44,169 bases of DNA from a virus (Duplodnaviria; Heunggongvirae; Uroviricota; Caudoviricetes): the IMG/VR virus record IMGVR_UViG_2740892274_000005. One strand, 5' to 3'. Under the pieces are notes generated by a model. The model saw only the letters and a program-made list of their open reading frames with translations. It was not told the origin of the DNA and searched no databases. Of this stretch, positions 4,371 to 26,096 are shown one piece after another. The first letter of the stretch is position 1. Each line of letters begins with the position of its first letter. Both the position numbers and the translations under genes were made by a program.

Positions 4371-4829
4371 TTATTCAGTCGGCAGTGCTACGCGCCAGGG
4401 GAGCAGTTCGCCGACCCGGTTTATCGGCCAGTCGGCTATGACGTCAAGGACATAGCGGAGGTAGCTTTCTGGCTCCACTCCGTTCAGTTTGCACGTCCCG
4501 ATCAGGCTGTACAGCAGCGCTCCCCGCTCTCCTCCATGATCCGAACCGAAGAACAGGTAGTTTTTGCGGCCCAGACTGACCATCCGCAACGCATTTTCAG
4601 CGATGTTATTGTCCGCCTCAGCCCAGCCATCATCTGCATAGTACGTCAGCGCCGGCCACTGGTTCAGGGCATATGCGAACGCTTTCGCCAGTTCTGAGTG
4701 TCGCGACAGGGTTTTCATCTTTTCACGCAGCCAGCTTTCCAGGGATTTCAGCAGCGGTTTCGTTTTCAACTGACGTTCGGCAAGGCGCTGTTTCAGCAGG
4801 AAGATGTCGTCAGAAGAGATGTCGTTCAT
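4371..4829 (-). pseudogene. IS66-family transposase TnpC, C-terminal fragment only (about 150 aa)
   Basis: Translation ...IAENALRMVSLGRKNYLFFGSDHGGERGALLYSLIGTCKLNGVEPESYLRYVLDVIADWPINRVGELLPW... matches the conserved C-terminus of IS66 TnpC. The N-terminal two-thirds is absent; the frame closes just before the prophage right end. Confidence 0.8.
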
Positions 4830-4936
4830 AAGCCCGTATTTTACCGGGCTTATTCTGTGACAACCAGGATAAAGAGATTTACAGCATGGTCAGGGAGGTC
4901 AGCAGCCGCTTAGGCTGTCTATAGCGCGGCGATTTT

Positions 4937-5010
4937 TTTGATACCGATTTGCATTTCATTTGATACCGCTGAAAAACGCCGATACGCAACTTATTTGATA
5001 CTAAATCGGC
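4937..5010. repeat. Prophage right-end repeats (putative transposase-binding sites, attR-like)
   Basis: TTTGATACCG at 4937..4946 and 4959..4968, plus variant TTTGATACTAAATCGG near 4994..5009. These are the reverse complement of the CGGTATCAAA copies at the left end. Confidence 0.6.
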
Positions 5011-5047
5011 GCTTTTCTTTTGAGTTTTAGAATGAGTTTTTAAGCGT

Positions 5048-5785
5048 TCATTCACTCTCTTTCAAACCAGTTTTAACTGTTTGTGGTTTTGGGTAAGGCT
5101 GGACTTTGAATAGCTTTGTGTTAAGGCGTTTTCTGGCTCTCTTGTCCAGAAACCGGATGTAACGAAACTGACGGAATTTATGAACACTGGCTCTGTCGAT
5201 ATTAGCCCGCAGATGTTCACCTCGCTGTCCTCCTCGTTTGATTGCATTCTTGCAAATCTCGTGATACCACTCGCCATCAAGTTCATAGAATGTTGTTTCA
5301 TGACTGCCTACATAATCAAAATTGCTTGCCTGGTACACGACACCAAGACAGCCACAACGCTCATCTGCAAACGACTGAACCCACTGCACCTGCGGATAAA
5401 GTTGTCTGATTAGTTTGAGCGCGTAACTGATTGCCCTTGATTCGGAGTTTCTCGGCATACAGTCATGCAGCCATAACCGGTTAAGCTCCATATATTCGCG
5501 GTTCTGCGTGCCAGTTACGACGCGTGCACCATTGTTTGGATTAAGGGCATAACCCCATTGCATTACGCCAACCAGCTCCCGTTCTGAAAATATGCCCAGA
5601 TGAAGGTAGGAATTATTTACGAAACGATGGCTGTAATGTTTATTGACGACGACCAGCCGGGCCAGCCAGCAACTTATTGTCTCAACCCGTAACTCACGGG
5701 AGCCATAACCGACGATATTGTCGTTATAGTGAATAAGTTCAGGCGTGCTGATGATACGGGATGTAACTTGCTTTCTGTTCCCCAC
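5048..5785 (-). CDS. mom: Mom-like DNA modification protein (adenine carbamoylmethylation family), start inferred at internal GTG
   Basis: Last gene before the right end and overlapped by a Com-like gene, as in Mu. Proposed start GTG at 5785..5783 preceded by AGGAAA with a 9-nt spacer (245 aa, against 231 aa for Mu Mom). The tracked 310-aa ORF 5048..5980 would run through com and is not favoured. Identity rests mainly on synteny. Confidence 0.6.
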
Positions 5786-5939
5786 GACAGGATTTCCTTG
5801 TGTATGTGGGGTGCTCTGTGGCGCTCTGAGATGTGATTTGATTGAGGGTTTTACAGCGCGGACATTTAACTTCCAGATAACTGAAGCTGGCTCGTGCCAG
5901 TAGCTTGTTACAATGTCGGCACCGTATGTTTCGATACAT
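5739..5939 (-). CDS. com: Com-like zinc-finger translational activator of mom
   Basis: [34 protein letters not shown]...EHPT... matches the Mu Com pattern (IRCKNCNKLL...IEIRCPRCK...EHPT) as I recall it. ATG at 5939..5937 with AGGAGG 10 nt upstream. The 3' end overlaps the mom start, as in Mu. Confidence 0.75.
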
Positions 5940-5984
5940 GGCCGCATAACCTCCTGCTTTGTTGTTGATATCTTTATCACTCAA

Positions 5985-6075
5985 TCGATCGACAAAAACG
6001 ATCGATTTGATTTATTTAATTGATACAACAAATAACACGAAATGTCATTAGCGAAAATTTATGAGTTTGATCACT
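5985..6075. promoter_or_regulatory. Putative mom promoter/regulatory region with a GATC (Dam site) cluster
   Basis: AT-rich region upstream of com with GATC at 5987..5990, 6000..6003 and 6069..6072. In Mu, Pmom is governed by the Dam methylation state of upstream GATC sites (OxyR binding) and is C-activated. No promoter hexamers assigned. Confidence 0.4.
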
Positions 6076-6195
6076 AATTTTAAACGGTGCTGTAACGCAT
6101 AAGTGCTGAATGATTGTACATTTGAATACCGCAAAGCAAACAAATCAACTAATTTATAGAAGTCAATTGGTTAATTGCCAGCGTAAGAGGCTGCT

Positions 6196-6489
6196 ATGGA
6201 CAATCATGTAACGACGAGAAATCGAAAAATGATTGAAAATGCGGAAATCTATAATGATTATTTTTCCGATTATTCAGATGCCTGCAAATACAGTTCGAGT
6301 GCGGGAGAGTTCATATGCTTCAACTTTTTTATTAAATCTTATGTTTTTCCTCCACAGCAAGAAGATGGAGGTGTGCCACCTCCTGAAATCACTTTGCACC
6401 GTATAGCCTCCGTCTCAATGATGGAGCAACAGGCTAATGAGCTGTATAGCATTCTGGGAACGATTCTACAAAAGCGTGAATCGGACTAA
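6196..6489 (+). CDS. Hypothetical protein (low-GC moron), divergent from com-mom
   Basis: 97-aa ORF with AAGAGG 6 nt upstream of the ATG. Visibly AT-richer than the phage backbone. No family recognised. Confidence 0.5.
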   Translation: MDNHVTTRNRKMIENAEIYNDYFSDYSDACKYSSSAGEFICFNFFIKSYVFPPQQEDGGVPPPEITLHRIASVSMMEQQANELYSILGTILQKRESD

Positions 6490-6656
6490 TGATACCGGTT
6501 CATTTGCCTGCCCGGATGGGGAAGCAGGATTGACTGCTCCATAAGCAGCTATATTTCTGAATACGAAATACTATCCAGCGATTACATATGGCTGGATAGC
6601 GGCAAAGATGTTTTCATTAGTGTCAAACCGGCAGAGGACACCACCGGTTTGTATTG

Positions 6657-6911
6657 TTACATCATGGTACTGTCAGTTCCGGGCTGAGCCGGGTCTGGTT
6701 GCTCTGGCTGCGCGTCGGTTTTCGGCTCATTATCAGCATCACTGGCCGCAACTGCTGGCCCAATAAGTTTTGCCAGCACTTCATCAACGTAAGTGTCGAT
6801 TTGTGCCTCAAAATCCTTGCGGACCTGCGCTTTCAGCAACTTATTTACTTCACCGGAATACAGTGCCTGTTTTACCAGGTCTTCAGTGACGGTGCCTTTA
6901 ATTTCTGGCAT
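6657..6911 (-). CDS. Hypothetical acidic 84-aa protein
   Basis: ATG at 6911 preceded by AAGGAGGA with about 6-nt spacing. Translation MPEIKGTVTEDLVKQALYSGEVNKLLKAQVRKDFEAQIDTYVDEVLAKL... then an acidic/Pro-rich tail. No family recognised. Confidence 0.6.
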   Translation of the reverse strand: MPEIKGTVTEDLVKQALYSGEVNKLLKAQVRKDFEAQIDTYVDEVLAKLIGPAVAASDADNEPKTDAQPEQPDPAQPGTDSTMM

Positions 6912-6946
6912 GTATATCCTCCTTATGCGGGAATAAAGCCCTGCAA

Positions 6947-7129
6947 TCAGGGCTGGGTCGGGTCTTTTGGGAGCGGAGTTACCTGCGCTGTTTTACTGAG
7001 TTTTTCAGCTGCTGCGTCCTCAATTTTGCGGCGAACATAATTTCTGATGGCCTTATAACCACCACTCACCAGATATAACGCACATACTGCCGTGCAGAAA
7101 TACAATAAAATAAGCTGTAAAAATGTCAT
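6947..7129 (-). CDS. Small single-pass membrane protein (60 aa)
   Basis: ATG at 7129..7127 preceded by GGGAGGG. MTFLQLILLYFCTAVCALYLVSGGYK has one N-terminal hydrophobic helix followed by a charged tail. The tracked ORF begins 4 codons earlier. Confidence 0.6.
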   Translation of the reverse strand: MTFLQLILLYFCTAVCALYLVSGGYKAIRNYVRRKIEDAAAEKLSKTAQVTPLPKDPTQP

Positions 7130-7225
7130 TATCCCTCCCAATTATTGACATGGTGTTGACACCGGTAATATCTGTTAGGTAAAAAGGTGCACTGCATTTT
7201 TTGCTTTGGATATAACGATCTTTTT

Positions 7226-7267
7226 GCCGCCGGTTTCTTGTTTTCCCTTACCGGCGGCATTTTTTTA
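7226..7267 (+). terminator. Rho-independent terminator, plus-strand orientation
   Basis: GCCGCCGGT (7226..7234) and ACCGGCGGC (7250..7258) form a 9-bp GC-rich stem, followed by ATTTTTTTA on the plus strand. On the minus strand the hairpin is followed by AAAAAG, so it is oriented for plus-strand transcripts. Confidence 0.55.
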
Positions 7268-7273
7268 TCCTGC

Positions 7274-9328
7274 TTACGCGTTATTCACTTCCACCACGAT
7301 ACTGTCAATCAGTACCGGGTAAGTCGCATTTTTAGTGATATCGGTCACGCGCAACTTGTCTGCCGTAAACGTGCCGACCGGAGACTGCGACAGCATGAAT
7401 GGTGTCCCGTCCTTACCATCAATGACCGGCGTCACCTCAATACTGTTGTTACCGGCAAAACGGAAGCCCAGCGTATGCCATTCGTTATTAAATGCGCCGA
7501 ATGACCCCAGCTTCGTGTTCTGCGCCGTGTTTCCTTTGTGATACATCACGTTAAGGTCTGTGGCATCGCTCTGTACGTAGAACGATGCCAGCAGGTTATG
7601 ACCGGCATTTCCTTCCAGAGTAACCCCTTGCGGCAGGGCAGAAACCGGCCAGTACAGCGCCAGTGCGTACTGATTAGCCGTAAGCGCGCCATCGAGTTTA
7701 AAACGACAACTGACAAGACCACCTTTACCCAGCAGGTCCGCACCATTACCAGCATCATGCTCAAGGTACCAGGGGGCTCTTCCTGTTTCCTTGGTCAGTT
7801 TCATTGCCTTACCCCCGCTGGCTCCGGCATCATCCACGATTTGAGCCTTGCCACCTCCGGCAGCCCAACCCTGTGGTGTCAACCGTCCTTCAGACTCAGA
7901 TGCCCGGTAAGCAAATAGCGTACTCATCGTCGTGGTGTCTGCGGGTGGCGTGGACGGTTTTGATGGTGTATCAGGTGACGGCTTCTCATCCGGTGGTGTC
8001 ACGGTCTGCCCACGCATCAGTTCAGCCGTGCGCCCTGCATGGAGCATAATAGCTGAGGCCAGACGGTCTGAAATGACGCCCCTGCGTGCCCATGAGCTGA
8101 AATGGCTGTCACGCTGTGTCGAAACAAAACTGCCCTGGGTTCGGGATGCTGCACCGTAATACCCGACAGCCACAATATCCGGGTCTTCCGCCGGAGCATT
8201 CGTTGGCGTGCTCTGTCCATTCTCATCCGTCAGGAACGGTACAAAGAAAATTTTCTGTGCTTCCTTGCCTTTGTAGCCACCGTATACTGCCTCATATTTA
8301 TCGGTGCCAGCGTTTTTCCAGTAATACGTGGTATCACCGCAAATCCACGGCACCGTGGTGGCATTTCCACTCACGCACTGCGCAGCAAGCGGAGCCAGGT
8401 CAGTTCTGAACTGCTGAACCATGGCCGTGAATAAACTATTATGCTGCTGGCTTCCTGAGGCAAGGTCTGCCTCTCCCTGCATCCAGACCACAGCCAGAAG
8501 TTTGTTTTTCGGGTTTTTCGCCAGCGCGACTTTGGTGCGGCTTACCAGGTCCTGATACAGAGGTTTACCGGCCCCCCAGCGTGAAGAATCAGCGGAAGCA
8601 CCGCTGGCCTCACTGAATGAGCCGTCGGCTCCAGTGGTGAATGCTGACCCGCCACGACAACAGGGCACCAGAAGTATCCCGGCATTCTGTGGGATATAGG
8701 GAAGCAGTTTTTTGGCAATATGCAACCCCTGACCGACAGTCCCGTACTGGCCTTTTGCCAGATCAGCTTTCGGGTGGTTTATCCCGCTCATATCCTGAAC
8801 ATCATGCAGGCAGTGGTCTGCCGGAATGATGTCGTTGTATGTACACGACGTACCGTTGGGCGTTACCGTACTGCGGCGTGCCAGTTGCTTAATGCGTGGG
8901 TCCGGGCGGTCAAACGAATCCGGTAACGGCAGCCCCTCGCCGTAGGCCATGCCATTTGACTGACCCGCGAGAATGACAACAAAGTAATATTCCGGCTCTG
9001 AACTGCTGCCATTCGTGCTACCGGAAGGCCCGGCGTTATCCGGTGCATTCCAGTCGGAGGGCGTGAGCGTTCCGGCCACGTCAGATGTGATTGGAATGAT
9101 GCCAGTCACGCCTGAACTGGTGATTTCTGCACTGGGATTACCGGATACCGGCATTACCCATAATGGCTCTTTCGTGCTGAAGCGGATCACGCAGTCTGCG
9201 AAGGTGATCCCCCCTTTATTACCCGAAGGGCGGAAAGGGCTTTCAATAAATGCCACCGTGCCACCGGCAACCTTGACTGAAAACTCTCCGGGCATGGCGG
9301 AGAGCATTTTCCACTTGGAGTCTGACAT
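7274..9328 (-). CDS. SGNH/SASA-type carbohydrate esterase-domain protein (sialate O-acetylesterase-like), 684 aa; candidate polysaccharide deacetylase
   Basis: Contains the esterase block YYFVVILAGQSNGMAYGEG (GQSN motif of the SASA/SGNH fold) after an N-terminal region of about 115 aa. C-terminal region of about 250 aa could be a lectin/jelly-roll domain. Not a Mu core gene. Confidence 0.7.
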   Translation of the reverse strand: MSDSKWKMLSAMPGEFSVKVAGGTVAFIESPFRPSGNKGGITFADCVIRFSTKEPLWVMPVSGNPSAEITSSGVTGIIPITSDVAGTLTPSDWNAPDNAGPSGSTNGSSSEPEYYFVVILAGQSNGMAYGEGLPLPDSFDRPDPRIKQLARRSTVTPNGTSCTYNDIIPADHCLHDVQDMSGINHPKADLAKGQYGTVGQGLHIAKKLLPYIPQNAGILLVPCCRGGSAFTTGADGSFSEASGASADSSRWGAGKPLYQDLVSRTKVALAKNPKNKLLAVVWMQGEADLASGSQQHNSLFTAMVQQFRTDLAPLAAQCVSGNATTVPWICGDTTYYWKNAGTDKYEAVYGGYKGKEAQKIFFVPFLTDENGQSTPTNAPAEDPDIVAVGYYGAASRTQGSFVSTQRDSHFSSWARRGVISDRLASAIMLHAGRTAELMRGQTVTPPDEKPSPDTPSKPSTPPADTTTMSTLFAYRASESEGRLTPQGWAAGGGKAQIVDDAGASGGKAMKLTKETGRAPWYLEHDAGNGADLLGKGGLVSCRFKLDGALTANQYALALYWPVSALPQGVTLEGNAGHNLLASFYVQSDATDLNVMYHKGNTAQNTKLGSFGAFNNEWHTLGFRFAGNNSIEVTPVIDGKDGTPFMLSQSPVGTFTADKLRVTDITKNATYPVLIDSIVVEVNNA

Positions 9329-9413
9329 CGTCTTTTCTGCCTGTTTCTGAATTAAACAGAGTCAGAATAGCGACCGCTGAAAAATATGTGTTTTGCGGAA
9401 ATTCAAAAAAGCG

Positions 9414-9986
9414 TCACGGTACTTTTGGTGACGGAGCTGGTGAGGCAGGAAAATAACGATAAAGGGTGGAAAGGCCAATATCAAATATCAGTGCGATTTG
9501 TTTACGGGACTCGCCATTAGCCAGCAAACGGGCGATTTGCTCCCGCTCTTTCTCTGTCAGTTTCTGAGGTCTGCCGCCATGACGCCCCTGAGCACGGGCA
9601 GCAGCAAGACCCGCGCGTGTACGTTCAATAATGAGTTCCCGCTCCATTTCCGCCAGCGCGCCCATTATATGGAAAAAGAAACGTCCCATGGGAGTGGATG
9701 TATCAATATTGTCCGTAATGCTGCGGAAGTTAACGCCGCGTTGCCGGAGTTCTTCTGTTAAAAGGACAAGGTGCTGCATACTGCGTCCAAGGCGATCCAG
9801 TTTCCAGACCAGCAGGGTATCCCCTGGCCGGAGTCGCTTTAATGCGCGTTTAAGTCCGGGACGCTCCCTTGTCTTACCGCTTATTCTGTCTTCGAAAAAC
9901 AGCTCACATCCTGCACATTCCAGCGCATTTCTTTGTAGCGCCGTATTCTGGTCATTTGTTGACACCCTGATATACCCAATCAGCAT
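9414..9986 (-). CDS. gin: Serine recombinase DNA invertase (Gin/Hin/Cin/Pin family)
   Basis: MLIGYIRVSTNDQNTALQRNALECAGCELFFEDRISGKTRERPGLKRALKRLRPGDTLLVWKLDRLGRSM... is near-collinear with Mu Gin as I recall it. Lies immediately beside the invertible segment. Confidence 0.93.
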   Translation of the reverse strand: MLIGYIRVSTNDQNTALQRNALECAGCELFFEDRISGKTRERPGLKRALKRLRPGDTLLVWKLDRLGRSMQHLVLLTEELRQRGVNFRSITDNIDTSTPMGRFFFHIMGALAEMERELIIERTRAGLAAARAQGRHGGRPQKLTEKEREQIARLLANGESRKQIALIFDIGLSTLYRYFPASPAPSPKVP

Positions 9987-10051
9987 ACGATTTCCTTATT
10001 ATAAAAAGCCGGAATTGTCGCATGAGGAATAAAACAGAGTTAATCCTGGCT

Positions 10052-10077
10052 TTCCTGAAAACCTCGGTTTACGGGAA
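10052..10077. promoter_or_regulatory. gix-like crossover site (right border of the invertible segment)
   Basis: Plus strand TTCCTGAAAACCTCGGTTTACGGGAA; its reverse complement TTCCCGTAAACCGAGGTTTTCAGGAA closely matches the Mu gix sequence as I remember it (TTCCTGTAAACCGAGGTTTTGGATAA). It sits exactly where homology between the two repeat blocks ends. Confidence 0.7.
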
Positions 10078-10190
10078 ACGGTAAACAGGGCGGCGAATGC
10101 TCTGCCATCGGACGGCACCGCCGTTGCCGCGAATAGACTCGCCACCCCAAGAAATATTAATGGGGTTCCCTTTGACGGGACGCAGGACAT
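10065..10190. repeat. Inverted repeat block (partner at 11256..11381) inside the invertible segment
   Basis: Plus 10065..10091 CGGTTTACGGGAAACGGTAAACAGGGC is the exact reverse complement of 11355..11381. Tracked ORFs 9999..10199 (-) and 11154..11444 (+) share [26 protein letters not shown] and [11 protein letters not shown], which shows the inverted homology. Confidence 0.85.
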
Positions 10191-10425
10191 AAACATCACT
10201 TCTGGTATAACACAGCAGGATGCGGATTCCCGATATATCCAGGATATCAGGCTGGGAGCAGAGAACAGGCAGGTAATGTACGGTGGGGCATATTACTCTG
10301 CGTACGGTAATGTTATGGCAGGCCTGCAGATTGACAGTAAAGTTGATGCTTCAAACGATTTTATAGCATTCAGACCCCTGCAAAAATTAGTCGGAGGTAC
10401 ATGGATTACGGTATCTCAGTTATAA
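10066..10425 (+). other. Promoterless alternative tail-fibre C-terminal cassette (S'v-like), currently in the off orientation
   Basis: Plus frame from 10066 reads [119 protein letters not shown], stop at 10423..10425. No start codon of its own; it would be fused to the constant fibre part after inversion. C-terminal RPLQKLVGGTW parallels [11 protein letters not shown] of the expressed fibre. Confidence 0.7.
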
Positions 10426-10476
10426 ATAGTCAGTAAATAATATATTTTAAAACAGATTTATTTCCAGGAGGATTTT

Positions 10477-10998
10477 ATGGAACTAAAAAATATAACCCGT
10501 TATTATCCTGAAAATATGCCATATGGTAATAATGTTCAGTATTTCCAGAGTGAAGATGGTAAGGATTTCTACGAATCCCTGCCATTATTCACCAAAAAAT
10601 ATAAACTTTGCATAACACCTGACAGCGGCGTTATCTGCTCAATATCACAGGACGCCTCGGCGCTGTATCCTGCGGGGTTTTCTGTGGTTGAGGTCGATGA
10701 ACTCCCTGAAGGCACGGATATTTCAGGAAACTGGAAGTTTGATAATGGCATAATCTCCCGTATTCCGGTTAACTACGCAAGAAAACTGGAAGCAATGCGC
10801 CAGTCATATCTTAATCAGGCATATGAAAAAATTAATGACTGGAGAACGGAGCTACAACTGGGCACCATCAGCGATGAAGACAGAGCAGCACTTACCCAAT
10901 GGATGGCATACATCAGTCAGGTGAAGAAAATGGAACTACCCGCCATTAAAACAGAAGCTGAATTTAACGCCATTAAATGGCCTGAGCAGCCACAGTAA
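10477..10998 (+). CDS. Tail fibre assembly protein (Tfa/Mu U-type chaperone)
   Basis: 173 aa with AGGAGG upstream. N-terminal region and C-terminal ...AEFNAIKWPEQPQ are typical of the Tfa chaperone family. Follows the alternative fibre cassette on the same strand. Confidence 0.8.
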   Translation: MELKNITRYYPENMPYGNNVQYFQSEDGKDFYESLPLFTKKYKLCITPDSGVICSISQDASALYPAGFSVVEVDELPEGTDISGNWKFDNGIISRIPVNYARKLEAMRQSYLNQAYEKINDWRTELQLGTISDEDRAALTQWMAYISQVKKMELPAIKTEAEFNAIKWPEQPQ

Positions 10999-11001
10999 TA
11001 A

Positions 11002-11021
11002 AGAAGGCCGGAAGGCCTTCT
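11002..11021. terminator. Hairpin between the convergent Tfa and tail-fibre genes (possible bidirectional terminator)
   Basis: AGAAGGCC GGAA GGCCTTCT is a perfect 8-bp stem with a 4-nt loop between the stops at 10998 (+) and 11030 (-). The flanking T/A runs are weak. Confidence 0.45.
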
Positions 11022-11029
11022 GAATATCA

Positions 11030-11911
11030 TTATATACTTGCAGCCGTCACCCATGCTCCATTTAACAGATACTGCAACGGCCGGTAATACACGCCGCCGA
11101 CGTTATCTGCCGTATTCTTACCGACATCCTGTACTTTAATTCCGGTAAGAACATTGCCGCCCCCCAGATTCAGATCCCAGCTTTCCCATGTTCCGGGCAT
11201 ATGTGCGGTCACCGACCCCAGTCTTATGGCGGTTACTGTTCCTGATGAGATAGTGATATCCTGCGTCCCGTCAAAGGGAACACCATTAATTGTGTGGGCA
11301 TTTGCCAGCCTGTTCGCGGCAACGGCGGTGCCGTCCGATGGCAGGGCATTCGCCGCCCTGTTTACCGTTTCCCGTAAACCGACGTTATCGATAAAAGCCC
11401 CTTTATCCGGAATGTCTGCGCCGTTCTGCTCCCTGCGCAGGTAACGGTTATCACCTTCGCTTTTGCTGTAAACATCCAGATTATTACGGGCGGTTCCCTT
11501 ATTCTCCAGGTCGGCGAGATTCTGATCCTTCGCCAGGGCATTAACGTCAGCGGGACCAAGACTGTTTTTTGTGGCAAGCGTCCCCAGACCAAGATAACCA
11601 CGGGCCAGACGCTGGGCCTCCGCACCGGCATCAGCAATTTCTTTCAGGTTATTTTTCCGGGAAAAGGCATTCGCAGCGATAATGGCTTTAATGGACAGCG
11701 TAAGCTGGTTTAACTGCGCCTTATCCGGCTGAATACTGGCTTCAGCCAGAATATTCAGCAGTTCGGCCTGGAGAATATTCAGCCAGTCCTGACCAATCCA
11801 GCTGATACCTTTTTGTCCGTCACCTTCGGTAAACCAGGTGGTGGTATTACTCTGCGCCGGTGCCAGCGCAGGCATATTCGCCACGCCGGAATTATTATCA
11901 ACATGAAACAT
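11030..11911 (-). CDS. Tail fibre protein (Mu S-like), constant N-terminal part fused to the currently selected variable C-terminus
   Basis: N-terminus [43 protein letters not shown] resembles Mu-type fibre proteins. C-terminus ...[22 protein letters not shown]. The gene spans the left gix-like site. Confidence 0.8.
11256..11381. repeat. Inverted repeat block (partner at 10065..10190)
   Basis: Same evidence as for 10065..10190. Encodes the fibre segment [24 protein letters not shown]...[12 protein letters not shown] shared by both alternative C-termini. Confidence 0.85.
11369..11394. promoter_or_regulatory. gix-like crossover site (left border), inside the tail-fibre gene
   Basis: Plus strand TTCCCGTAAACCGACGTTATCGATAA, in inverted orientation relative to the site at 10052..10077. 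Confidence 0.7.
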
Positions 11912-12471
11912 TAAATAGTCTCCTCTTCATGGCTGTTTGCATAAACGTAAATAAACGTCTGCCATGCAGGCTTATAACGGTTCAGAATACATTCCAGCGC
12001 ACCGCCTTCATAAATACGCAGCGGCGTGAGAATATCATCCAGCACATTCATATTCCGGTAGCCGGTTTCACTGTTAATCGTGACAATACTGACCCACTGC
12101 GAATCCGGTGAGGGCTGAATGTCAATCTGATAACCAAACTCCGCCGCAAACCGGATATAAAATTCACGGTTCAGCGAGGGCTTCATCCGGTATTTATTTC
12201 CGGCATAACGCTGTCGCTCCGTGAGGGTGGCTCCGGCCATATCACACTCGGGAAGCCCGAGATAACGCTCCCAGTCTTCCAGCAGCAGGCGCGACGTGTC
12301 AGGGAAACGCTCGGCAAGCAGCTGTTTACCCGTCCAGGATACACGCGCTGTCGAATGACTGAGGCCCAGACATAATGATGCCAGTACGGATGACGGACGC
12401 TTGTCCCATGCCAGCCCGTCAGGCAGTAACTGCAACAGGGCGCGCTGATGCGGGGTCAGGGTTACAGCCAT
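11911..12471 (-). CDS. Baseplate/tail protein (Mu gp48-like)
   Basis: 186 aa, translationally coupled between the baseplate J-like gene and the fibre gene. Assigned by position in the Mu-type tail module. Confidence 0.6.
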
Positions 12472-13544
12472 GTGATTTCTCCTACCGTCAGCAGCTCACT
12501 GTCTCCCGCCTGAACTGACGTCAGCGGACTGCGCACTTCAAAATCCTCCAGATTTTTCACCCCTGCCACCGCCCGCCAGAAAGACGACGGCAGAACCAGA
12601 CCGCCGGGCCGGGATTCGTTATACAACAGGTCGGTCAGCGCCTGTTTTACGGCCGCCTGATTCTCCGGTGTTTTCGGGATGATCCTGATGCTGAAGGGCA
12701 CCGGCTTATTGGTCAGTTTAAACACGGTCACCGTCGGCCCCAGAGGCTGTCCGACAGGCTGGCCGGTCGCCGGATCATCATGACTGCGGATATAATCCGC
12801 CACCCGCTGAACATCACCGTCACCGGGGAAAATATCCGGGTTATTATCCTGAACAAACGTTACCCCCACGCTGCCCGCCTGCGGCCATTCCGGGCGGCAC
12901 CATGCCCGCGTCACGCCCGGCACTTCACGCGCCCAGCGTTCAAAATCATACTGCGTGCCGCCGGACGGTGGATTCTGCACCCGGAAAACCAGACGGGAAA
13001 GCAGCTCCGGCACGGTTTCCACATCCGCACCACCGGTGATCCCCGTTCCGGTCACCGTGGCCGTCTGGTTGATCCCCGCCTGCGGTGTGATAAATGTCAG
13101 TTTTGTCCCTGCCGGGGCATTCCCCGCACGACCGGCACTTTCGGCTTCCACACTGACATTCAGCGTACCGGCCTTACCGGTCAGGGAGGTGGTGATACGG
13201 TAAACCACGCCATCACTTCGCTGGAGAAGCACACCTTCCTTGATCCCCGCATCCGTGGTCAGCATCAGCTGAACCGGCCCGTCCCCCCGAGAGGCAGGCT
13301 TACGCATGACGCCCCAGAATGCACAGTGTTTCAGCAGTTCGGCTTCATCGGCTTCGGTCGGGATGATCTGACGCGCAATCCAGGCCAGATGCTCATGCTC
13401 CTGAGCAGATAACCCTGCCTGAGCGTAAGCAATGGCATTCAGGGTGGTTTCATTCACACCCGGCTGCGAGCCGGGCAGGCGCTGGCTGATATCCTGCTGT
13501 GTCTGCGTGATTAACTGTGCCAGCGGTAAAGGCTGATAAGGCAT
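12462..13544 (-). CDS. Baseplate J-like protein (Mu gp47 family)
   Basis: 360 aa, overlaps both neighbours. Size and position match the baseplate J family in Mu/P2-type tails. Confidence 0.7.
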   Translation of the reverse strand: MPYQPLPLAQLITQTQQDISQRLPGSQPGVNETTLNAIAYAQAGLSAQEHEHLAWIARQIIPTEADEAELLKHCAFWGVMRKPASRGDGPVQLMLTTDAGIKEGVLLQRSDGVVYRITTSLTGKAGTLNVSVEAESAGRAGNAPAGTKLTFITPQAGINQTATVTGTGITGGADVETVPELLSRLVFRVQNPPSGGTQYDFERWAREVPGVTRAWCRPEWPQAGSVGVTFVQDNNPDIFPGDGDVQRVADYIRSHDDPATGQPVGQPLGPTVTVFKLTNKPVPFSIRIIPKTPENQAAVKQALTDLLYNESRPGGLVLPSSFWRAVAGVKNLEDFEVRSPLTSVQAGDSELLTVGEITWL

Positions 13545-13981
13545 TACTCCCCCTTAAGATCAGCATAAAAAATCATGGGCCTCACTGAACCATCAGGCAG
13601 GGTTATGCGCACCGAAAGCGCCAGCCGCGCGTGTCCCACACGTTCTGCATGACAGACCACGGATGACGCCACGCCATCCTGACTGAGCCAGCCCAGCGCC
13701 TCATCCGCGTAAGCACGGGCACGGCTTATCACCGAGGCCAGCGTTTTTTCCCGGCTGAGAAGCCACAGACGGGAGCCAATGGGGCGCGGGCGAAAACTGT
13801 CTCCCCACCATCCCCGGCGGTCGCGCGTACCGTCAGGGATTTCATCCGATGCCAGCGCCCGGCGGTCAGTAAACAGCGAAATCAGAACGGCCGTCAGCAG
13901 ACTGTCATCCGTCAGCAAGTCGGCACCGTTCAGTTGCAGCGAACCGCACCCCTGATCCCATACAATTGCAATATCAGCCAT
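13544..13981 (-). CDS. Baseplate wedge protein (Mu gp46 / GPW-gp25-like)
   Basis: Start taken at the internal ATG 13981..13979 (MADIAIVWDQGCGSLQLNGADLLTDD...), which overlaps the upstream stop in the pattern gagaATGGCTGAt. The tracked ORF extends further 5' into the upstream gene. Confidence 0.65.
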   Translation of the reverse strand: MADIAIVWDQGCGSLQLNGADLLTDDSLLTAVLISLFTDRRALASDEIPDGTRDRRGWWGDSFRPRPIGSRLWLLSREKTLASVISRARAYADEALGWLSQDGVASSVVCHAERVGHARLALSVRITLPDGSVRPMIFYADLKGE

Positions 13982-14588
13982 TCTCCGGCGCTCCTGTCTT
14001 ACTGCCTTTGCCGTTATCCTGATGCACATGGCCGGAATAGGTGATCCCGGCAATAACGGCATCAGACATCGTGAACAGCCCGTCTGATTTACCTGTACCA
14101 TCAAGCACGAAATTACCCTTAACATGCAGGTTTTTATCCACCGTCACATTGCCCGTAAAGGTGGCCTCCGGCGTATCCACCCGCATCCCCTCATCGGCGT
14201 AAATCTCCAGCATTTTGCATGTCACAATAATGCGACCATCCTTTGTTAACCGTATCCGGTGCCCCTCATGGTGATACACCCCCGTATCTCCGGCTGTGAG
14301 TCCGGTCGGGCGGCTGCGCCGGTCTTCCACCACAAGCACCACAGTCTGATCCCGCTGTCCGCCCAGACAGGCAAAAAAGGTTTCCGCACCCGGCAGGGGA
14401 ACGCTGATCTGCCCGTACTGCTGGGGACGCTCCACATCATCAAAGGTTTCGCCGTCCATGCCGGTGAGCTGCACATTCTGCATTTTCAGTTCGTCATGTG
14501 TGCCGGTCAGAACGCCCCGGCCAAACAACAGGCGAATACCGCGCGTTACCGGGGCAATCAGGCGGCTGAACACTTCATCATTCATCAA
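13974..14588 (-). CDS. Baseplate assembly protein V / spike (Mu gp45-like)
   Basis: 204 aa, ...QNVQLTGMDGETFDDVERPQQYGQISVPLPGAE.... Typical size and position for gpV-like spike proteins. Confidence 0.7.
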   Translation of the reverse strand: MMNDEVFSRLIAPVTRGIRLLFGRGVLTGTHDELKMQNVQLTGMDGETFDDVERPQQYGQISVPLPGAETFFACLGGQRDQTVVLVVEDRRSRPTGLTAGDTGVYHHEGHRIRLTKDGRIIVTCKMLEIYADEGMRVDTPEATFTGNVTVDKNLHVKGNFVLDGTGKSDGLFTMSDAVIAGITYSGHVHQDNGKGSKTGAPENG

Positions 14589-15702
14589 AGCTGATCCCCT
14601 GTTTTTTCATCTGCTGGCGAATAAAGGCATCAACATCGTCACCGGAACCACCCCGGCCCTTACTGTCCGGCTCTGCCGGAACGATAAAGCCGTCACGCGG
14701 TGCCAGTACCAGCCGGGTGACTTCCCCGTTATGTTCATCAAGTAAAAACTCCACCTGACAGACCAGCAGTTCAGTCTGTTCTATACCGAAACGCAGGGCT
14801 GAAACACCGGTCAGCAGATTGACATCCCATAACCGGCCATCATCCCGGAACCAGCCACGCACGGTGGCAGAAAACCGTTCTGAACGGGCAATCGCACGGC
14901 GCATTTCACGCAGGGCACGCTGCCGTGCACCGGTGGTGTCTGTCTGTTGATCGGCGAGGATGATTTTCGACCGGTAGCGGCCGATCTGCTCATCACTGAT
15001 GACGCCCACAGGTGCTGCCAGACGGGCGGCGGATTCGCTGTCTCCCCGTTTGCCACCACCGCGCCCGTGTCCCCGGACACGGTATTCGCTGTATCGTCCT
15101 CGCCAGTCCGTGTTGTAATCGGCATCAAGCAGGTTATCTCCCAGCACCAGTCTGTCCGTCTGCTGGCTTCCTGCCTGGGTGAACACCAGATCGCCGTCAG
15201 CATTACTGGTCACCAGCACCCCGCGATGCCGGGCAGCACGGGTCAGCGCATCCGCCACGGTTTCTGAGTTTTCCAGCGTAAAAGAGCTGAAGGGGCGTGC
15301 AGCCGTGTCGTCGTTAACCTGCCAGCGCACGGCTATCCCGAAGGGCGCACATAAATCTGCGGCAATCTGTGCCAGCGTCCGGTTGCGCCACTGGCTGCCG
15401 GGATGGATGGCGGCACAGTCCACCAGGTCGCCGGTTTTATCCCGACCGCTGATGCTGATCTGATGACGGGTTGCACTGATCCGCTGACTGACCTGATCCA
15501 GCCAGCCACTGATGACCGTCTGCCCGTTAATTCTGAGCGTCAGGGACTGACCGGTTCGCAGGGCTGAGGGGATGCGCTCACCGGGCAGCATCAGCCCCAG
15601 TTCAAACGACCCGGCCAGATGCTCCAGCGAGCGACGGACGCTGACCGTCAGCCAGCCGGAAAAAATACTGCCACCGATATACAGTTCAATCCTGCTGCTC
15701 AC
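14578..15702 (-). CDS. Baseplate hub / tail protein (Mu gp44, P-like)
   Basis: 374 aa, overlaps both neighbours. Assigned by synteny. Confidence 0.6.
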   Translation of the reverse strand: MSSRIELYIGGSIFSGWLTVSVRRSLEHLAGSFELGLMLPGERIPSALRTGQSLTLRINGQTVISGWLDQVSQRISATRHQISISGRDKTGDLVDCAAIHPGSQWRNRTLAQIAADLCAPFGIAVRWQVNDDTAARPFSSFTLENSETVADALTRAARHRGVLVTSNADGDLVFTQAGSQQTDRLVLGDNLLDADYNTDWRGRYSEYRVRGHGRGGGKRGDSESAARLAAPVGVISDEQIGRYRSKIILADQQTDTTGARQRALREMRRAIARSERFSATVRGWFRDDGRLWDVNLLTGVSALRFGIEQTELLVCQVEFLLDEHNGEVTRLVLAPRDGFIVPAEPDSKGRGGSGDDVDAFIRQQMKKQGISFDE

Positions 15703-17044
15703 TGATCACCTCCACGCTGCGGCCACCCGGAACAAAAACCGGATCGGGGATATTGTTTCTGCGGACAAAATACTGCCAGCGACTGCTGTTGCCGGTGGCA
15801 CGGTACAGCGTGACCAGTGCCGGTTCGGTGGTGCGAACCATGACCTGAAAAGCACCGGGAAGATGCACGCTCCGTGTGGTTAAATCTTCTGTCAGCGCAA
15901 GCCCTGCATCACGTAATGCAAGGGCAGTCCCGGTATAGCCCTGTGCGGACAGATCCAGCACCTGTTGTTCCATGGCATCGCTCAAATCCCGGTTGATACG
16001 CTGCACATCAGCAGAACTTTCCAGCCAGGCCAGTCCGCCCGAACGGTCAGTATCCTGAACGTGCGTCGTATTCTGCCGGATGACCTGATCCAGCAGTTTT
16101 CCGAGCGTCTGTGCCTGCGACACCAGGGTTGCACTCTGCATCACGCTCCGCAGCAGACGGATATTTTTCTGTGCCGCAGGCGTCAGGCCAATCAGGCGCT
16201 GTGGATCATCCTGTTCGCTGAGGGTGTAACGCAGGGAGGAAAGTGTGCGGTACAGCTGCGGCATGGCCTGCTCTGCCATGCTGTCACGGTTTGTGGTCAG
16301 GCTGCCGGACGGCGTTCCGGCTTTTCCGGTCAGAGACAGGGAAGGATCGCCGGGCAGCCCGGTCAGCACGGCAAACATTCCGGCCAGCGATTCAGCCATG
16401 CGACGGGGCGCATTAATCAGGGCGGCGGCATTGCCTTTCAGGGCAGTAAAACTGGCCGTAAAGGCACTGATATCCTGCACAATCCCCATCCCCGAAACGG
16501 CATTCTCCAGTGCATCAATCTTATCGCTGATGGTGTCGGTCATGGCCTGTACATCATGCAGACCGTCTGAAATCACCGTCCAGCCGTCTGAAAGCGTGTT
16601 AAACAGCTGATTCATTGCTGAGCCGCTTTTCTGCTCCAGCGCAGCTGCCGTATCTTCTGCCACCGCAGGGGCGGTATCGTCACTGGCGGGGATCACGTTG
16701 ATCGTGAACTCAACCGTTCCCTGCTCGCTGGCGTTATAACGGCTTTCAAAGCTGTTTATCAGCACGTTTAACGTGCCGTAATCCGGGTGCATCAGTTCAC
16801 CGGCACCGGGTGCACGCAGCGCATCACGCAGGCGGCTTCGCTGTGTCTGAAGATCGTCTCCGGTCACCAGAACCGTGAATGTGAACTCCGGGAGTTTTGG
16901 CCCCAGATCATCCGCACCGCCGCTTTCACGCAGTGGGTATTCACGGCGCACAATGTTACGTCCGCCCCGTTCCCGCTGCTCCTGATAAACCAGGAACGGT
17001 ACGCCACGAAAGGAGCCACGCCCCGGCGTGTCAGTAGAGGCCAT
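15686..17044 (-). CDS. DNA circularisation protein N-like (Mu gp43)
   Basis: 452 aa immediately downstream of the tape-measure gene. Assigned by synteny and size. Confidence 0.6.
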   Translation of the reverse strand: MASTDTPGRGSFRGVPFLVYQEQRERGGRNIVRREYPLRESGGADDLGPKLPEFTFTVLVTGDDLQTQRSRLRDALRAPGAGELMHPDYGTLNVLINSFESRYNASEQGTVEFTINVIPASDDTAPAVAEDTAAALEQKSGSAMNQLFNTLSDGWTVISDGLHDVQAMTDTISDKIDALENAVSGMGIVQDISAFTASFTALKGNAAALINAPRRMAESLAGMFAVLTGLPGDPSLSLTGKAGTPSGSLTTNRDSMAEQAMPQLYRTLSSLRYTLSEQDDPQRLIGLTPAAQKNIRLLRSVMQSATLVSQAQTLGKLLDQVIRQNTTHVQDTDRSGGLAWLESSADVQRINRDLSDAMEQQVLDLSAQGYTGTALALRDAGLALTEDLTTRSVHLPGAFQVMVRTTEPALVTLYRATGNSSRWQYFVRRNNIPDPVFVPGGRSVEVISEQQD

Positions 17045-19088: not shown

Positions 19089-19091
19089 GGG

Positions 19092-19286
19092 TTACTGCTT
19101 CGTTCTGAGAATTTTTTCGGTCTGTCGGCAGTGCCGGTAAAGCTGCGATAAGGGGAGGTTAAGCGCCCACTCCGGGCCGCTTTTTGTCACCATCCCCAGC
19201 ACAATTGCGGCTTCTTCAATCTGATCCCGGCACTGCATCTGGTCGCCCCCGTTCAGCGACCAGCTTTCCGGCCATCGCGGAATCAA
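19092..19286 (-). CDS. Frameshift extension of the tail assembly chaperone (GT-like product), no convincing independent start
   Basis: Frame is +1 (equivalently -2) relative to 19216..19692 and overlaps it by 71 nt. The overlap contains GAACGGGGGCGACCAG. The tracked start is a TTG with no RBS. Confidence 0.45.
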   Translation of the reverse strand: MIPRWPESWSLNGGDQMQCRDQIEEAAIVLGMVTKSGPEWALNLPLSQLYRHCRQTEKILRTKQ

Positions 19287-19692
19287 GCAGGCTTACTGCC
19301 GCCATCAGTCGGGAGAGATCGCGCTCGCTGAGCTGTCCTATCTGACGCGGAGACAATGGCCCCTCAATCTGGCCGACAGCGGCAATCTGACGGCGCAGCA
19401 GCGCAATGCCGCGCAGTGCCGGTGAGGCCACAAGAACCGGACCGTTTCGGGTTTCCATAAGACGCTCGGCCTCGCTCTCCGCATCAATGCTGTCTTTTGC
19501 CGTCAGTTCGCGGAAGGTGACGCGGTATTCACGGGATTCCCCGAACGGCAGACCGTCGAGCAGATCCACATAGCCGTTCGCCAGTTGTTCAGCCAGCCCG
19601 GCGGTGCGGGGATCGCCGTCTTCAAGTGCATCCCGGATAGCCTCCATCACGGCCTCGTCAGAAACCGCCGTTTTTTTCTTACGTGTGCTCAT
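19216..19692 (-). CDS. Tail assembly chaperone (Mu gp41 / lambda G analogue)
   Basis: 158 aa between the tube and tape-measure genes. Its 3' end overlaps a second frame (19092..19286), as in the conserved frameshift chaperone pair. Confidence 0.6.
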   Translation of the reverse strand: MSTRKKKTAVSDEAVMEAIRDALEDGDPRTAGLAEQLANGYVDLLDGLPFGESREYRVTFRELTAKDSIDAESEAERLMETRNGPVLVASPALRGIALLRRQIAAVGQIEGPLSPRQIGQLSERDLSRLMAAVSLLDSAMAGKLVAERGRPDAVPGSD

Positions 19693-19706
19693 TACATTTT
19701 TCCTGA

Positions 19707-20072
19707 TTACTGGACACGGGTACTGGTGGCGCTGGCGAACTTCGCGGAGATATCACCACCACCGTCAAGCGAGGCCGGTTCACTGCTCCAGGCCTTCGTC
19801 ATCATGTGGACTTCACCGGTATCGGCCACGAACTCAATCGTGACCGCAGTCCAGGTGTTGATTTCATCGGCAGCCGGTGAACCTTCTCCGCCCGCCGGGA
19901 ATTTACAGTCCAGCGTCGCCTCACGGGGTTTCTCGCGATAGCCGTAAACTTTCGCGCCTTTCACCACTTCACGCTCAAAGCCGGACGGGGAGAACGTGGC
20001 CCCCTCAAGGGTGTCGTACTCCTGCCCGTTCACACGGATGGTGGCCGTGCCCTGATACTGTTTTCCGCTCAT
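19707..20072 (-). CDS. Tail tube protein (Mu M-like)
   Basis: 121 aa directly downstream of the sheath gene: MSGKQYQGTATIRVNGQEYDTLEGATFSPSGFEREVV.... Confidence 0.75.
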   Translation of the reverse strand: MSGKQYQGTATIRVNGQEYDTLEGATFSPSGFEREVVKGAKVYGYREKPREATLDCKFPAGGEGSPAADEINTWTAVTIEFVADTGEVHMMTKAWSSEPASLDGGGDISAKFASATSTRVQ

Positions 20073-20080
20073 GCCTTACC

Positions 20081-21583: not shown

Positions 21584-21861
21584 CAGGACGTCCCCTTATC
21601 TGATGCTGCGGTTTTTTCAGCCACCGCCGCAGTTTTTTCTGCTACCGCTCCCGCTGGTTTTGCCGCCGCGCCGGTATTAGCAGTTGTGGCAGCCGGGGCA
21701 GGCTCCGCCGTTTTATCCACCACAATGACGTCGCCATCATTAAGACGGCGGCACCAGAACGGAGTGAAGGGTTTCTCTTCCCCGTCCTGAGAGAGCGGAG
21801 TCATCGTGTCGGGATCGCGGATCAGGCATCCCGGCGCAGGTTTAATAAAAATGGTTGTCAT
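21583..21861 (-). CDS. Mu gp38-like small protein
   Basis: 92 aa with an Ala-rich C-terminus, between the head-completion genes and the sheath gene. Assigned by synteny. Confidence 0.5.
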   Translation of the reverse strand: MTTIFIKPAPGCLIRDPDTMTPLSQDGEEKPFTPFWCRRLNDGDVIVVDKTAEPAPAATTANTGAAAKPAGAVAEKTAAVAEKTAASDKGTS

Positions 21862-21864
21862 CTG

Positions 21865-23200: not shown

Positions 23201-23243
23201 ATTTGCCCTCCGCAGGGGCCGGGCCGTAAGCCCGGCTCACCGT

Positions 23244-25975: not shown

Positions 25976-26096
25976 ATTGCCTCCGCATAAAGGATGAATA
26001 TAAAATAAACAGGCGGTCAGTGTACGCTTAACTGGTAAAGTCGGTGCCTGCCTCCGGGTGGATCATGTATGCGGGTTCGACCCCCGCCACTGACCG

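Follow-up and report, generated by a model that had tools for sequence, protein, structure and literature searches.

A Mu-type com-mom operon with a compact upstream control region at the right end of a Mu-like Escherichia coli prophage

Com is a small RNA-binding activator, and Mom is an enzyme that modifies adenines in the DNA of the phage, allowing it to evade restriction. The 44,169-nucleotide stretch of viral DNA analysed here (IMG/VR record IMGVR_UViG_2740892274_000005, referred to as the window) contains a Mu-like prophage of E. coli at 4920..43552 (38.6 kb), in which com and mom are the last two genes. Judged by comparison of the sequence with its relatives, these genes very probably form a Mu-type com-mom operon, with DNA modification by Mom, translational control by Com, and transcription control of the Dam/OxyR type. 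Both genes are ordinary, already-annotated relatives of Mu com and mom, and the operon is a routine member of a known system and a modest regulatory variant of it. The sole unusual point is that the upstream control region is more compact than that of Mu. An earlier note on this DNA had proposed such a module with a cluster of GATC sites upstream; all of the elements it listed were found where it had placed them, with one correction, as the upstream in-frame ATG is at 5947. The features of the locus are collected in Table 1.

Table 1. Coordinates of the features of the com-mom locus in the window, in order of transcription
Feature	Position	Strand	Description
Third GATC	6069..6072	-	69 nt from the GATC pair; in sequence without a Mu counterpart
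OxyR-like tetramer motif	5988..6024	-	Two 15-nt half-sites, 7 nt apart; consensus match
Two CGATCG sites (GATC 6000 and 5987)	5983..6007	-	13 nt apart; homologous to Mu GATC II and III
Candidate weak -10, TGATAAA	5973..5979	-	Placed by an alignment anchored on GATC III
com Shine-Dalgarno, AGGAGG	5950..5955	-	10 nt before ATG 5939, read from the sequence
com	5739..5939	-	66 aa; ATG 5939, stop 5739; CCCC zinc-ribbon translational activator
Predicted Com-binding RNA hairpin, GAGCGCCACAGAGCAC	5811..5826	-	Aligns with the Mu 19-mer Com target
Translation-inhibition stem-loop	5780..5811	-	CCCCAC (5811..5806) pairs with GUGGGG (5785..5780) in the predicted minimum-free-energy fold
mom	5048..5785	-	245 aa, GTG start; GNAT-fold adenine-modifying enzyme
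Prophage right end (attR)	4920..5047	-	Repeated TTTGATAC(C) motifs; terminus ...GCGCTATA at 4920

The earlier note described a Com-like open reading frame overlapping the 5' end of mom, and this description is borne out. The protein, which reads ...CPRCK...EHPT, matches Pfam family PF10122 (Zn_ribbon_Com; E = 7.5e-13, 48.2 bits with a cut-off of 22.9) and the PHROG 'gpCom control of modification', and is identical to RefSeq WP_014334043.1, already named Com. Identity to Mu Com is 45%, and none of the four zinc-binding cysteines has been lost; in an alignment of 12 homologs these residues (C7, C10, C26, and C29, with Mu counterparts C6, C9, C26, and C29) are invariant. The gene sits immediately upstream of mom, overlapping the gene whose translation the Com family activates, and the overlap is 47 nt as compared with 50 nt in Mu. 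No model naming Com or Mom was found in NCBIfam.

The identity of mom, which had been left to an alignment of the 245-residue product with Mu Mom, is equally clear: the two proteins are 78% identical. The product also matches the structure PDB 8bv8 (E = 2.4e-123), Pfam family PF25680 over profile positions 1-202 of 202 (E = 7.8e-78, 261.2 bits with a cut-off of 27.1), and PHROG 1384 (2.8e-83), and it is identical to RefSeq WP_000528246.1, named Mom and annotated with the same start. In Mu Mom, the residues R111, S124, D149, and R151 are needed for activity, as are W48, H58, Y59, Y159, and W181 (PMC13219725). In alignments to Mu Mom and to 8bv8, the counterparts of the first group (R103, S116, D141, and R143) and those of the second (W40, H50, Y51, Y151, and W173) are all conserved, and the helix-turn-helix-like insertion (175-209 in Mu Mom) is present as well. 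By homology, the window Mom should act as Mu Mom does: Gly-tRNA(Gly) would donate its glycine to the N6 position of adenines in double-stranded DNA, and the adduct would rearrange to N6-carbamoylmethyl-adenine, which blocks many restriction enzymes. This mechanism, glycine transfer from Gly-tRNA(Gly) to adenine, was reportedly demonstrated for Mu Mom in 2026.

Control of mom translation in the Mu manner, with the GUG in a predicted stem-loop and a putative Com hairpin alongside, is strongly supported by comparison with Mu and other relatives. In Mu, the GUG start of mom lies within the stem of an inhibitory structure, and the Com target includes an adjacent 5' hairpin with a 6-nt loop containing CC-N2-3-GAG and a closing C-G pair (PMC6483171). 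In the window, the GUG is in the 3' arm of the predicted inhibitory stem-loop, the 20-nt loop of which holds the mom sequence AAGGAAA (5799..5793), and minimum-free-energy folding of the window and Mu sequences predicts the stem-loop in each case, with CCCCAC/GUGGGG pairing in the window. Across 12 relatives the 5-bp core of the stem is paired in 100% of cells, with a loop length of 11 to 20 nt; the stem never varies, so covariation can neither confirm it nor lend it independent support, and it also overlaps two coding frames. The predicted Com hairpin folds weakly, with a 4-pair stem that includes one C.A mismatch in the window lineage, a 6-nt loop, and the CC-N3-GAG motif at 5821..5814. This hairpin is supported by compensatory changes, as three of the four stem pairs have changed on both sides across 12 sequences and none of 500 shuffles reached the observed covariation score. 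The EHPT conserved in the tail of Com is probably a protein-level shadow of the Com-target RNA. Fold energies for the junction RNA were no better than those of shuffles (z = -0.8) and were not used as evidence, and a described RNA family was ruled out by an Rfam scan, which returned nothing below E = 0.8. According to this model, translation would begin at GUG 5785, the stem-loop would sequester this codon and its ribosome-binding site, and Com, made from the same mRNA, would bind the neighboring small hairpin and open the stem-loop.

Dam/OxyR control as in Mu is probable because two of Mu's three GATC sites have homologs here and these lie within an OxyR-like motif. The suggestion in the earlier note that the operon is under control similar to that of Mu stands for translation, where the Com hairpin and inhibitory stem-loop are conserved, and probably stands for Dam and OxyR. 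The three GATC sites it named (5987, 6000, and 6069) are all present, but the site at 6069 does not qualify as a Mu-type site: it has no Mu counterpart, is retained solely by the nearest E. coli variants, and is absent from the variant of the operon in Mu-like prophages of E. coli O157:H7 (the O157 variant). In Mu, three GATCs spaced by 18 and 13 nt precede the promoter; only sites II and III are present here, and the position of Mu GATC I reads AATT (6021..6018). The three GATCs named in the earlier note are thus not a copy of the Mu triplet, since only two are homologous, and the spacing does differ from that of Mu as had been suspected, with site I missing and the pair 27 nt closer to com. 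The pair at 6000 and 5987 is the only one in the window with 13-nt spacing, and 31 of 37 distinct related control regions have such a pair ahead of com. Both of its GATCs fall in the com-proximal half-site of the OxyR-like motif, which agrees with the consensus at 13 of 20 positions, a score reached at only 3 of approximately 44,000 window positions, and has the same score and register to GATC II and III as the best motif in the GATC region of Mu. A Dam site pair placed inside such a motif would make transcription methylation-sensitive. The 9-bp inverted repeat at 5983..6007 was considered as a terminator or separate protein site and rejected, being simply the two self-complementary CGATCG sites.

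The promoter geometry also differs from that of Mu, a point missing from the earlier note. With the pair this much closer to com, there is no room for Mu's 67-nt promoter: GATC III is 31 nt from the com ribosome-binding site, whereas in Mu the annotated 67-nt Pmom fills the same space. Sister control regions have a strong -10 hexamer (TATACT, TATCAT, or TATAGT) 11 nt after GATC III, and the candidate -10 in the window occupies this position. The candidate is poor throughout the E. coli group (TGATAA, TGAGAA, TGAAGC), and a consensus scan of the minus strand upstream of com found no sigma-70 promoter and did not detect the candidate. A TTAAAA-16-TAAATT promoter containing GATC 6069 was set aside because the O157 variant does not share that segment. 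If the candidate is correct, transcription would start about 24 nt after GATC III. We infer that, here, the GATC/OxyR-like motif lies against the core promoter or overlaps it, whereas in Mu it lies upstream of the activator site.

The question then is whether a late activator takes part. No Mu-type C-binding site is present between the GATC region and the -10 in the window, and the Mu C-site motif (CATAACCCC-type) was absent upstream of com when judged by eye. The C homolog of the window phage, encoded at 33980..33558, is 40% identical to Mu C, and at Plys and PI the phage has a late-promoter motif of its own, consisting of a 26-nt motif and a 13-nt spacer before the -10. A search upstream of com for this motif, with up to 3 mismatches, showed no resemblance, and the span is filled by GATC/OxyR-like sequence. 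The absence at com is weak evidence, since the motif was built from two sites only, the two recognizable late promoters of the phage, and a third expected late promoter was also not found with it. A partial match, CCGCAAA near 6120, was dismissed as a chance occurrence, being on the other strand and incorrectly spaced. Tentatively, the com-mom control region of this lineage may belong to a compact class of control regions, including those that drive methyltransferases, in which the activator segment is lacking, the OxyR site would fall on the -35/spacer region, and a two-GATC methylation gate like that of gtr and agn43 would take the place of a late activator. Compact com control regions, with a Dam/OxyR-type GATC pair beside the -10, represent a simple, testable variant of the classic circuit, and under the two-GATC reading expression of the toxic modification enzyme might be bistable. 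It is possible, if doubtful, that com-mom transcription still needs a late activator, as Mu mom needs C, through a divergent site, with GATC/OxyR modulating from upstream. Mom is toxic and expressed late in Mu (PMC7261163), a weak candidate -10 is to be expected of an activator-dependent promoter, and Mu Pmom is the most divergent of Mu's four late promoters, to which can be added the small number of sites behind the motif used in the search. Against a divergent activator site are the short distance from GATC III to the com ribosome-binding site and the GATC/OxyR-like sequence that occupies the span where the motif and spacer would lie.

It is improbable that the GATCs upstream of com are non-regulatory, as relics or by chance, with control exerted by Com and ordinary transcription only. 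The window has three clusters with three GATCs within 86 nt, so a GATC cluster of this density is not significant by itself; one of Mu's three sites has been lost, and the partial OxyR match is in AT-rich DNA. However, the pair spaced by 13 nt is kept, together with its flanking sequence (CGATCG-N7-CGATCGAT), from Mu to relatives in Edwardsiella and Symbiopectobacterium with promoters that are otherwise unalignable, the pair is missing in marine gammaproteobacterial relatives such as L010 and L011, and sister com-methyltransferase loci retain all three GATC sites.

The setting of the operon is that of an intact-looking prophage. The mom gene is the final gene ahead of the right end, and a match to ISEc8 picks up again at 4919, directly beyond the terminus. 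The identical terminus adjoins six different flanks, those of five other E. coli insertions and the ISEc8 flank of the window, which identifies mom as the last phage gene, as in Mu. The com-mom region was found in 29 of 5,426 complete E. coli genomes (at least 80% coverage of the queried region), at different insertion sites. Degraded copies do exist: strain DLI.5a has a deleted prophage of roughly 19 kb, and L121 and L122 carry com without mom. The left terminal dinucleotide is TA in the window where DLI.5a has TG. That com-mom is likewise an inactive remnant in a defective prophage, producing no modification, is nonetheless very unlikely, given that both open reading frames are intact, the catalytic residues of Mom are all kept, the Com and Mom proteins are identical across many genomes, and the full-length prophage has open reading frames for transposase, B, a C-like activator, lysis, head, and tail.

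The earlier note placed the mom start at an internal GTG and saw no convincing start before com in the longer 310-aa open reading frame, and the comparison agrees on both counts. The long frame spans 5980..5048 on the minus strand, and the Mom domain (PF25680, E about 1e-77) covers only its residues 96-298. The GTG at 5785 follows AGGAAA by 7 nt, aligns with Mu's annotated mom GTG, and equals the RefSeq mom start in identical loci; there is no other in-frame canonical start codon between 5947 and 5785. Ahead of this GTG the frame stays open over 65 codons both in the window and in strain M3, and over 122 codons in strain CI5, but the open stretch is not conserved: the frame closes 27 codons upstream in the O157 variant (95.7% identical), 19 codons upstream in L005, and 10 and 4 codons upstream in Mu and L008, respectively. 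When relatives are compared, it is the GUG, and not the upstream ATG, that emerges as the conserved predicted start of mom. The upstream ATG that gives Mu Mom its 241-residue numbering was found only in Mu among the relatives checked. Translation from ATG 5947 or GTG 5980, yielding a protein of roughly 299-310 aa that would run through com in another frame and make the Com frame spurious, has in its favor the frames left open in the window, M3, and CI5, but is close to refuted: AGGAGG is only 2 nt from ATG 5947 as compared with 10 nt from the com ATG, the extension matches no family, the frame fails to stay open across relatives, and Com is a conserved family with invariant cysteines.

One of the closest known systems is Mu com-mom (AF083977 35768..36602, with near-identical copies in D108 and SfMu), in which the two genes likewise stand in this order at the right end of a transposable phage. 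Shared with Mu are the GUG start in a CCCAC...GUGGG stem-loop, the upstream hairpin with a CC-N3-GAG loop, the two CGATCG sites 13 nt apart in an OxyR-like motif, and all of the catalytic residues of Mom. The window Mom is 14 residues longer, with 2 of the extra residues close to the N-terminus and the other 12 at the C-terminus, and the window does not have the upstream ATG that starts the 241-aa version of Mu Mom (numbering of PMC13219725). GATC I is also lacking, nothing here corresponds to the C-binding site and 67-nt promoter of Mu, and gin is separated from com by a 3.3-kb cassette (esterase, DUF1378, DUF826, and a divergent open reading frame).

The Mu-like prophages of E. coli O157:H7 are 95.7% identical in DNA to the window over a span that begins roughly 95 nt ahead of com and runs as far as the prophage end; these matches are presumably Sp18 itself. 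In this variant, there are 7 residue differences in Mom and 2 in Com, and the GATC pair has the same -64/-51 positions, but the sequence upstream of -95 is unrelated, including GATC 6069 and the divergent open reading frame. There is little here for discovery: RefSeq already names both genes, and the literature already credits Mu-like prophages such as Sp18 of E. coli O157:H7 with Mom and its regulators (PMC3299994).

Operons of com with a non-specific DNA adenine methyltransferase (Hin1523, Hia5, Nma1821 type) are also known in Mu-like prophages (PMC3299994). As in the window, a Com homolog overlaps a downstream DNA-modification gene; however, the downstream enzyme is a DPPY methyltransferase rather than the GNAT-fold Mom. 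The enterobacterial-type viral contigs with such operons (L128-L145) have the same compact control region, with GATCs at -82, -64, and -51 from com. The putative OxyR site of the window can also be compared with the Dam/OxyR switches of gtr in P22 and agn43 in E. coli, which are phase-variable surface-antigen genes. In gtr, 13-nt GATC pairs lie inside OxyR half-sites, the promoter-proximal pair overlaps the promoter, and transcription starts 33 bp after the last GATC (PMC2909390). There are three half-sites and four GATCs in gtr, as compared with two half-sites and one 13-nt pair in the window, and in both gtr and agn43 the 13-nt GATC pair lies within a single OxyR half-site, much as the window pair lies within one OxyR-like half-site.

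The locus is an ordinary member of a known system and was rightly read as such in the earlier note. The Com-like zinc-finger ORF that the note placed at the 5' end of mom matches a Pfam family, and the 310-aa frame does hold the proposed 245-aa product from GTG 5785; the Mom family covers residues 96-298 of the former and 31-233 of the latter (Pfam, E = 7.8e-78 for the 245-aa product). Exactly these two proteins already have RefSeq names: Com is identical to WP_014334043.1 ("Com family") and Mom to WP_000528246.1 ("Mom family adenine methylcarbamoylation protein" or "tRNA(Gly)-dependent adenine aminoacyltransferase Mom"). The label "hypothetical protein" persists on several Mom copies of identical sequence. 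In the identical loci L001 and L003, PGAP labels Com "Com family DNA-binding transcriptional regulator," whereas Mu Com binds RNA and activates translation. The presence of Mom and its regulators in Mu-like prophages such as Sp18 has already been noted (PMC3299994).

Features of the com-mom locus and its prophage
Feature	Position	Strand	Detail
Prophage	4920..43552	read on -	38.6 kb
Long open frame including mom	5980 to 5048	-	310 aa
com ORF	ATG 5939 to 5739	-	66 aa, ...CPRCK...EHPT...; Pfam Zn_ribbon_Com, E = 7.5e-13
Inhibitory stem-loop	5811..5780	-	sixth C-G pair in window
Predicted Com hairpin	5826..5811	-	alignment of 12 junctions
GATC sites near com	5987, 6000, 6069		sequence search
Divergent 86-aa ORF	6229..6489	+	
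DUF826	6657..6911	-	
DUF1378	6947..7141	-	
684-aa protein	7274..9328	-	sialate-O-acetylesterase (SASA) domain + DUF6645
Probable late-activator motif	25351..25376	-	TTCTGAnnTnCCGCAAAnCCnGCCCC (26 nt), then TTAYGC after 13 nt; upstream of head-protease gene
Probable late-activator motif	33538..33563	-	TTCTGAnnTnCCGCAAAnCCnGCCCC (26 nt), then TTAYGC after 13 nt; upstream of lysozyme gene
Mor/C-family activator gene	33980..33558		prophage

The similarity to Mu Mom is clear on alignment (78% identity over 233 residues), and the crystal-structure chain 8bv8 is matched with E = 2.4e-123. Mu Mom has a GNAT fold and transfers glycine from Gly-tRNA(Gly) to N6 of adenine in duplex DNA; rearrangement of this adduct on the base then yields N6-carbamoylmethyl-adenine (Silva et al. 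2026, PMC13219725). In the numbering of that study (the 231-aa Mu annotation plus 10, or the window plus 8), activity depends wholly or almost wholly on R111, S124, D149, and R151, while W48, H58, Y59, Y159, W181, and the 175-209 insertion are important (PMC13219725). All of these activity residues are kept in the window Mom in alignments to Mu Mom and 8bv8, which makes the same chemistry the best inference from sequence.

ISEc8 (IS66-family) sequence picks up on either side, at 4919 and at 43553, and is unbroken in an uninterrupted copy used for comparison, and the intervening DNA is therefore a prophage, with Mu-type transposase and B, lysis, head, and tail genes, and a Gin-like invertase. 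Its right terminus, ...GCGCTATA, lies 128 nt from the end of mom and adjoins six different flanks (five other E. coli insertions and the window's ISEc8), so mom is the last phage gene, as in Mu and as the earlier note had it. Among 5,426 complete E. coli genomes, 29 have the com-mom region (query 4850..6250, 80% or more coverage), and the insertion site varies. The broken ISEc8 adjoins tail-fibre-like ORFs of another prophage. A 5-bp duplication is expected for Mu insertion; the junctions here (4916..4920 and 43552..43556) have only 4 bp (TGTC), and strain DLI.5a also has 4 bp (GTAC). Six independent insertions end on the right in ...CTATA-3', not ...CA-3', and the left terminus is TATAACC in the window versus TGTAACC in DLI.5a.

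Mu is without the cassette at 6229..9328 that separates the Gin-like invertase gene (9414..9986, -) from com. Its 86-aa ORF has no family in Pfam, PHROGs, or NCBIfam. The trio of esterase, DUF1378, and DUF826 is presumably akin to a cassette widespread in lambdoid Stx prophages. A 173-aa ORF on the opposite strand (10477..10998, +) separates the tail-fibre gene (11911..11030, -) from the invertase gene, and this region looks like an invertible G-segment-type host-range switch in one orientation. Two other compared loci, L121 and L122, have kept com (98% identical) and lost mom.

The region upstream of com was compared with Mu by alignment and by anchoring on the com ATG. The three GATC sites reported by the earlier note are all present, but only two of them have Mu counterparts: 6000 and 5987 correspond to Mu GATC II and III (both CGATCG, 13 nt apart), while the window reads AATT where Mu has GATC I, a further 18 nt upstream. 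GATC 6069 is in sequence without a Mu counterpart and is missing also from the O157 variant (related prophage copies of E. coli O157:H7), which is unlike the window upstream of about -95. The three sites are not Mu's triplet, and the Mu-type three-GATC arrangement is absent from the window. The 13-nt pair is found in 31 of 37 distinct com-upstream regions; marine gammaproteobacterial relatives such as L010 and L011 lack it. The sequence at 6024..5988 matches the OxyR tetramer consensus at 13/20 positions by simple count, a score that just three places in the window reach, and the Mu motif has an equal score and the same register to GATC II and III. Both window GATCs fall inside one half-site of this putative motif, as do those of the P22 gtr operon, in which methylation keeps OxyR from binding (PMC2909390). 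The score, the shared register, and the gtr-like half-site make Dam/OxyR control of the window com-mom plausible. All of com and mom lie within 1.45 kb (4538..5987) that has zero GATC, and GATC is rarer than expected in the whole window (133 observed versus 167 +/- 11 in shuffles).

The promoter departs further from Mu. An annotated 67-nt late promoter fills the Mu interval from GATC III to the com ribosome-binding site, and its C-binding region has a CATAACCCC-like motif common to Mu's other three late promoters, whereas the window interval is only 31 nt, with 51 nt from GATC III to the com ATG (78 nt in Mu). Identity between Mu C and its homolog in this phage is only 40%, and TTCTGAnnTnCCGCAAAnCCnGCCCC is probably the binding site of this Mor/C-type late activator. 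A looser copy, CCCCAAATCCCGCCAC (34050..34035), is upstream of the activator gene itself; none turned up for a tail-gene promoter. Related com control regions form two classes, one long (Mu, D108/SfMu-type, Symbiopectobacterium, and others) and one compact (the window's E. coli group, Edwardsiella, several viral contigs, and a large com-DPPY DNA methyltransferase set). The compact class has a good -10 hexamer (TATACT, TATCAT, or TATAGT) placed 11-13 nt beyond the G of GATC III; in the E. coli group this position reads just TGATAA, TGAGAA, or TGAAGC. The core promoter would start directly after GATC III, with transcription starting near 5966. This would put GATC II at -35 and GATC III within the spacer, so that OxyR bound to unmethylated DNA would directly block the promoter. 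The weak -10 of the E. coli group, and an activator motif built on two sites, leave room for an unrecognised activator site at com-mom; the TTCTGAnnTnCCGCAAAnCCnGCCCC-TTAYGC motif is nowhere near com, no Mu-type activator site was recognised between the GATCs and the -10 in the window, and this alternative is the less likely one. The com leader (5958..5966) has (CAA)3 in the window versus (CAA)5 in strain CI5, a length difference between the predicted -10 and the com ribosome-binding site.

Twelve distinct junction sequences were compared across the segment coding Com's ...EHPT..., where two RNA elements adjoin. The first is a four-pair hairpin whose six-base loop has CC-N3-GAG, the motif recognised by Com (PMC6483171). 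Three of its four pairs are changed on both sides (A-U, G-C, G-U; U-A, C-G; G-C, A-U); the covariation score was reached by 0 of 500 shuffles, and slid controls collapse. The second pair is a C.A mismatch in the window lineage and U-A in an otherwise identical viral contig (L031). Directly 3', CCCAC...GUGGG surrounds the mom ribosome-binding site, with the start codon base-paired in the stem. This inhibitory stem is 100% paired, with a loop of 11 to 20 nt, and covariation adds no support because the stem is invariant and doubly coding. Both stems are predicted by single-sequence folding in the window and Mu, and junction fold energies are no better than those of shuffles. C5811 can pair in either stem, which we infer to be compatible with Com binding loosening the inhibitory stem. 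The EHPT codons (5805..5816, GAG CAC CCC ACA) form the 3' arm of the hairpin and the 5' arm of the inhibitory stem. The EHPT-bearing tail is disordered in Mu Com, and EHPT is probably conserved among Com proteins because of the RNA structure, not the protein.

The proposed mom start, GTG 5785, agrees with Mu and with the starts of relatives. It aligns with the annotated Mu GTG (AF083977 35907), and MG opens both products; relatives from other genera have GTG or ATG here, 6-9 codons before a conserved SR(I/V)L, and in one compared locus (L008) the mom frame opens just four codons upstream of the start. "The Mom GUG start codon" has been placed in the stem of the translation-inhibition structure in Mu (PMC6483171). 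A com-mom fusion from ATG 5947, the upstream ATG in the mom frame and the alternative that the earlier note had raised, is very unlikely, since AGGAGG (5955..5950) is 10 nt from the com ATG and only 2 nt from ATG 5947, the window has no canonical in-frame start codon between 5947 and 5785, and the O157 variant (96% identical) has the mom frame shut 27 codons upstream. The 241-aa Mu Mom used for residue numbering starts at an ATG ten codons before the GUG (PMC13219725). A counterpart of this ATG is absent in every relative examined, and the published tolerance of Mu Mom to a ten-residue truncation (PMC13219725) fits that absence.

The locus works like the Mu com-mom operon, with a Mom-family protein, a Com-family protein, and the Mu-type translational switch. 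In the viral contigs L128-L145 (e.g., L133 892..1834) the Com homolog overlaps a 263-aa DPPY DNA adenine methyltransferase, not mom, and the same compact region precedes it (GATCs at -82, -64, and -51); the control cassette is therefore common to two unrelated DNA-modification enzymes. Set beside Mu, the compact control region is a modest variant of the circuit, worth a reporter experiment.
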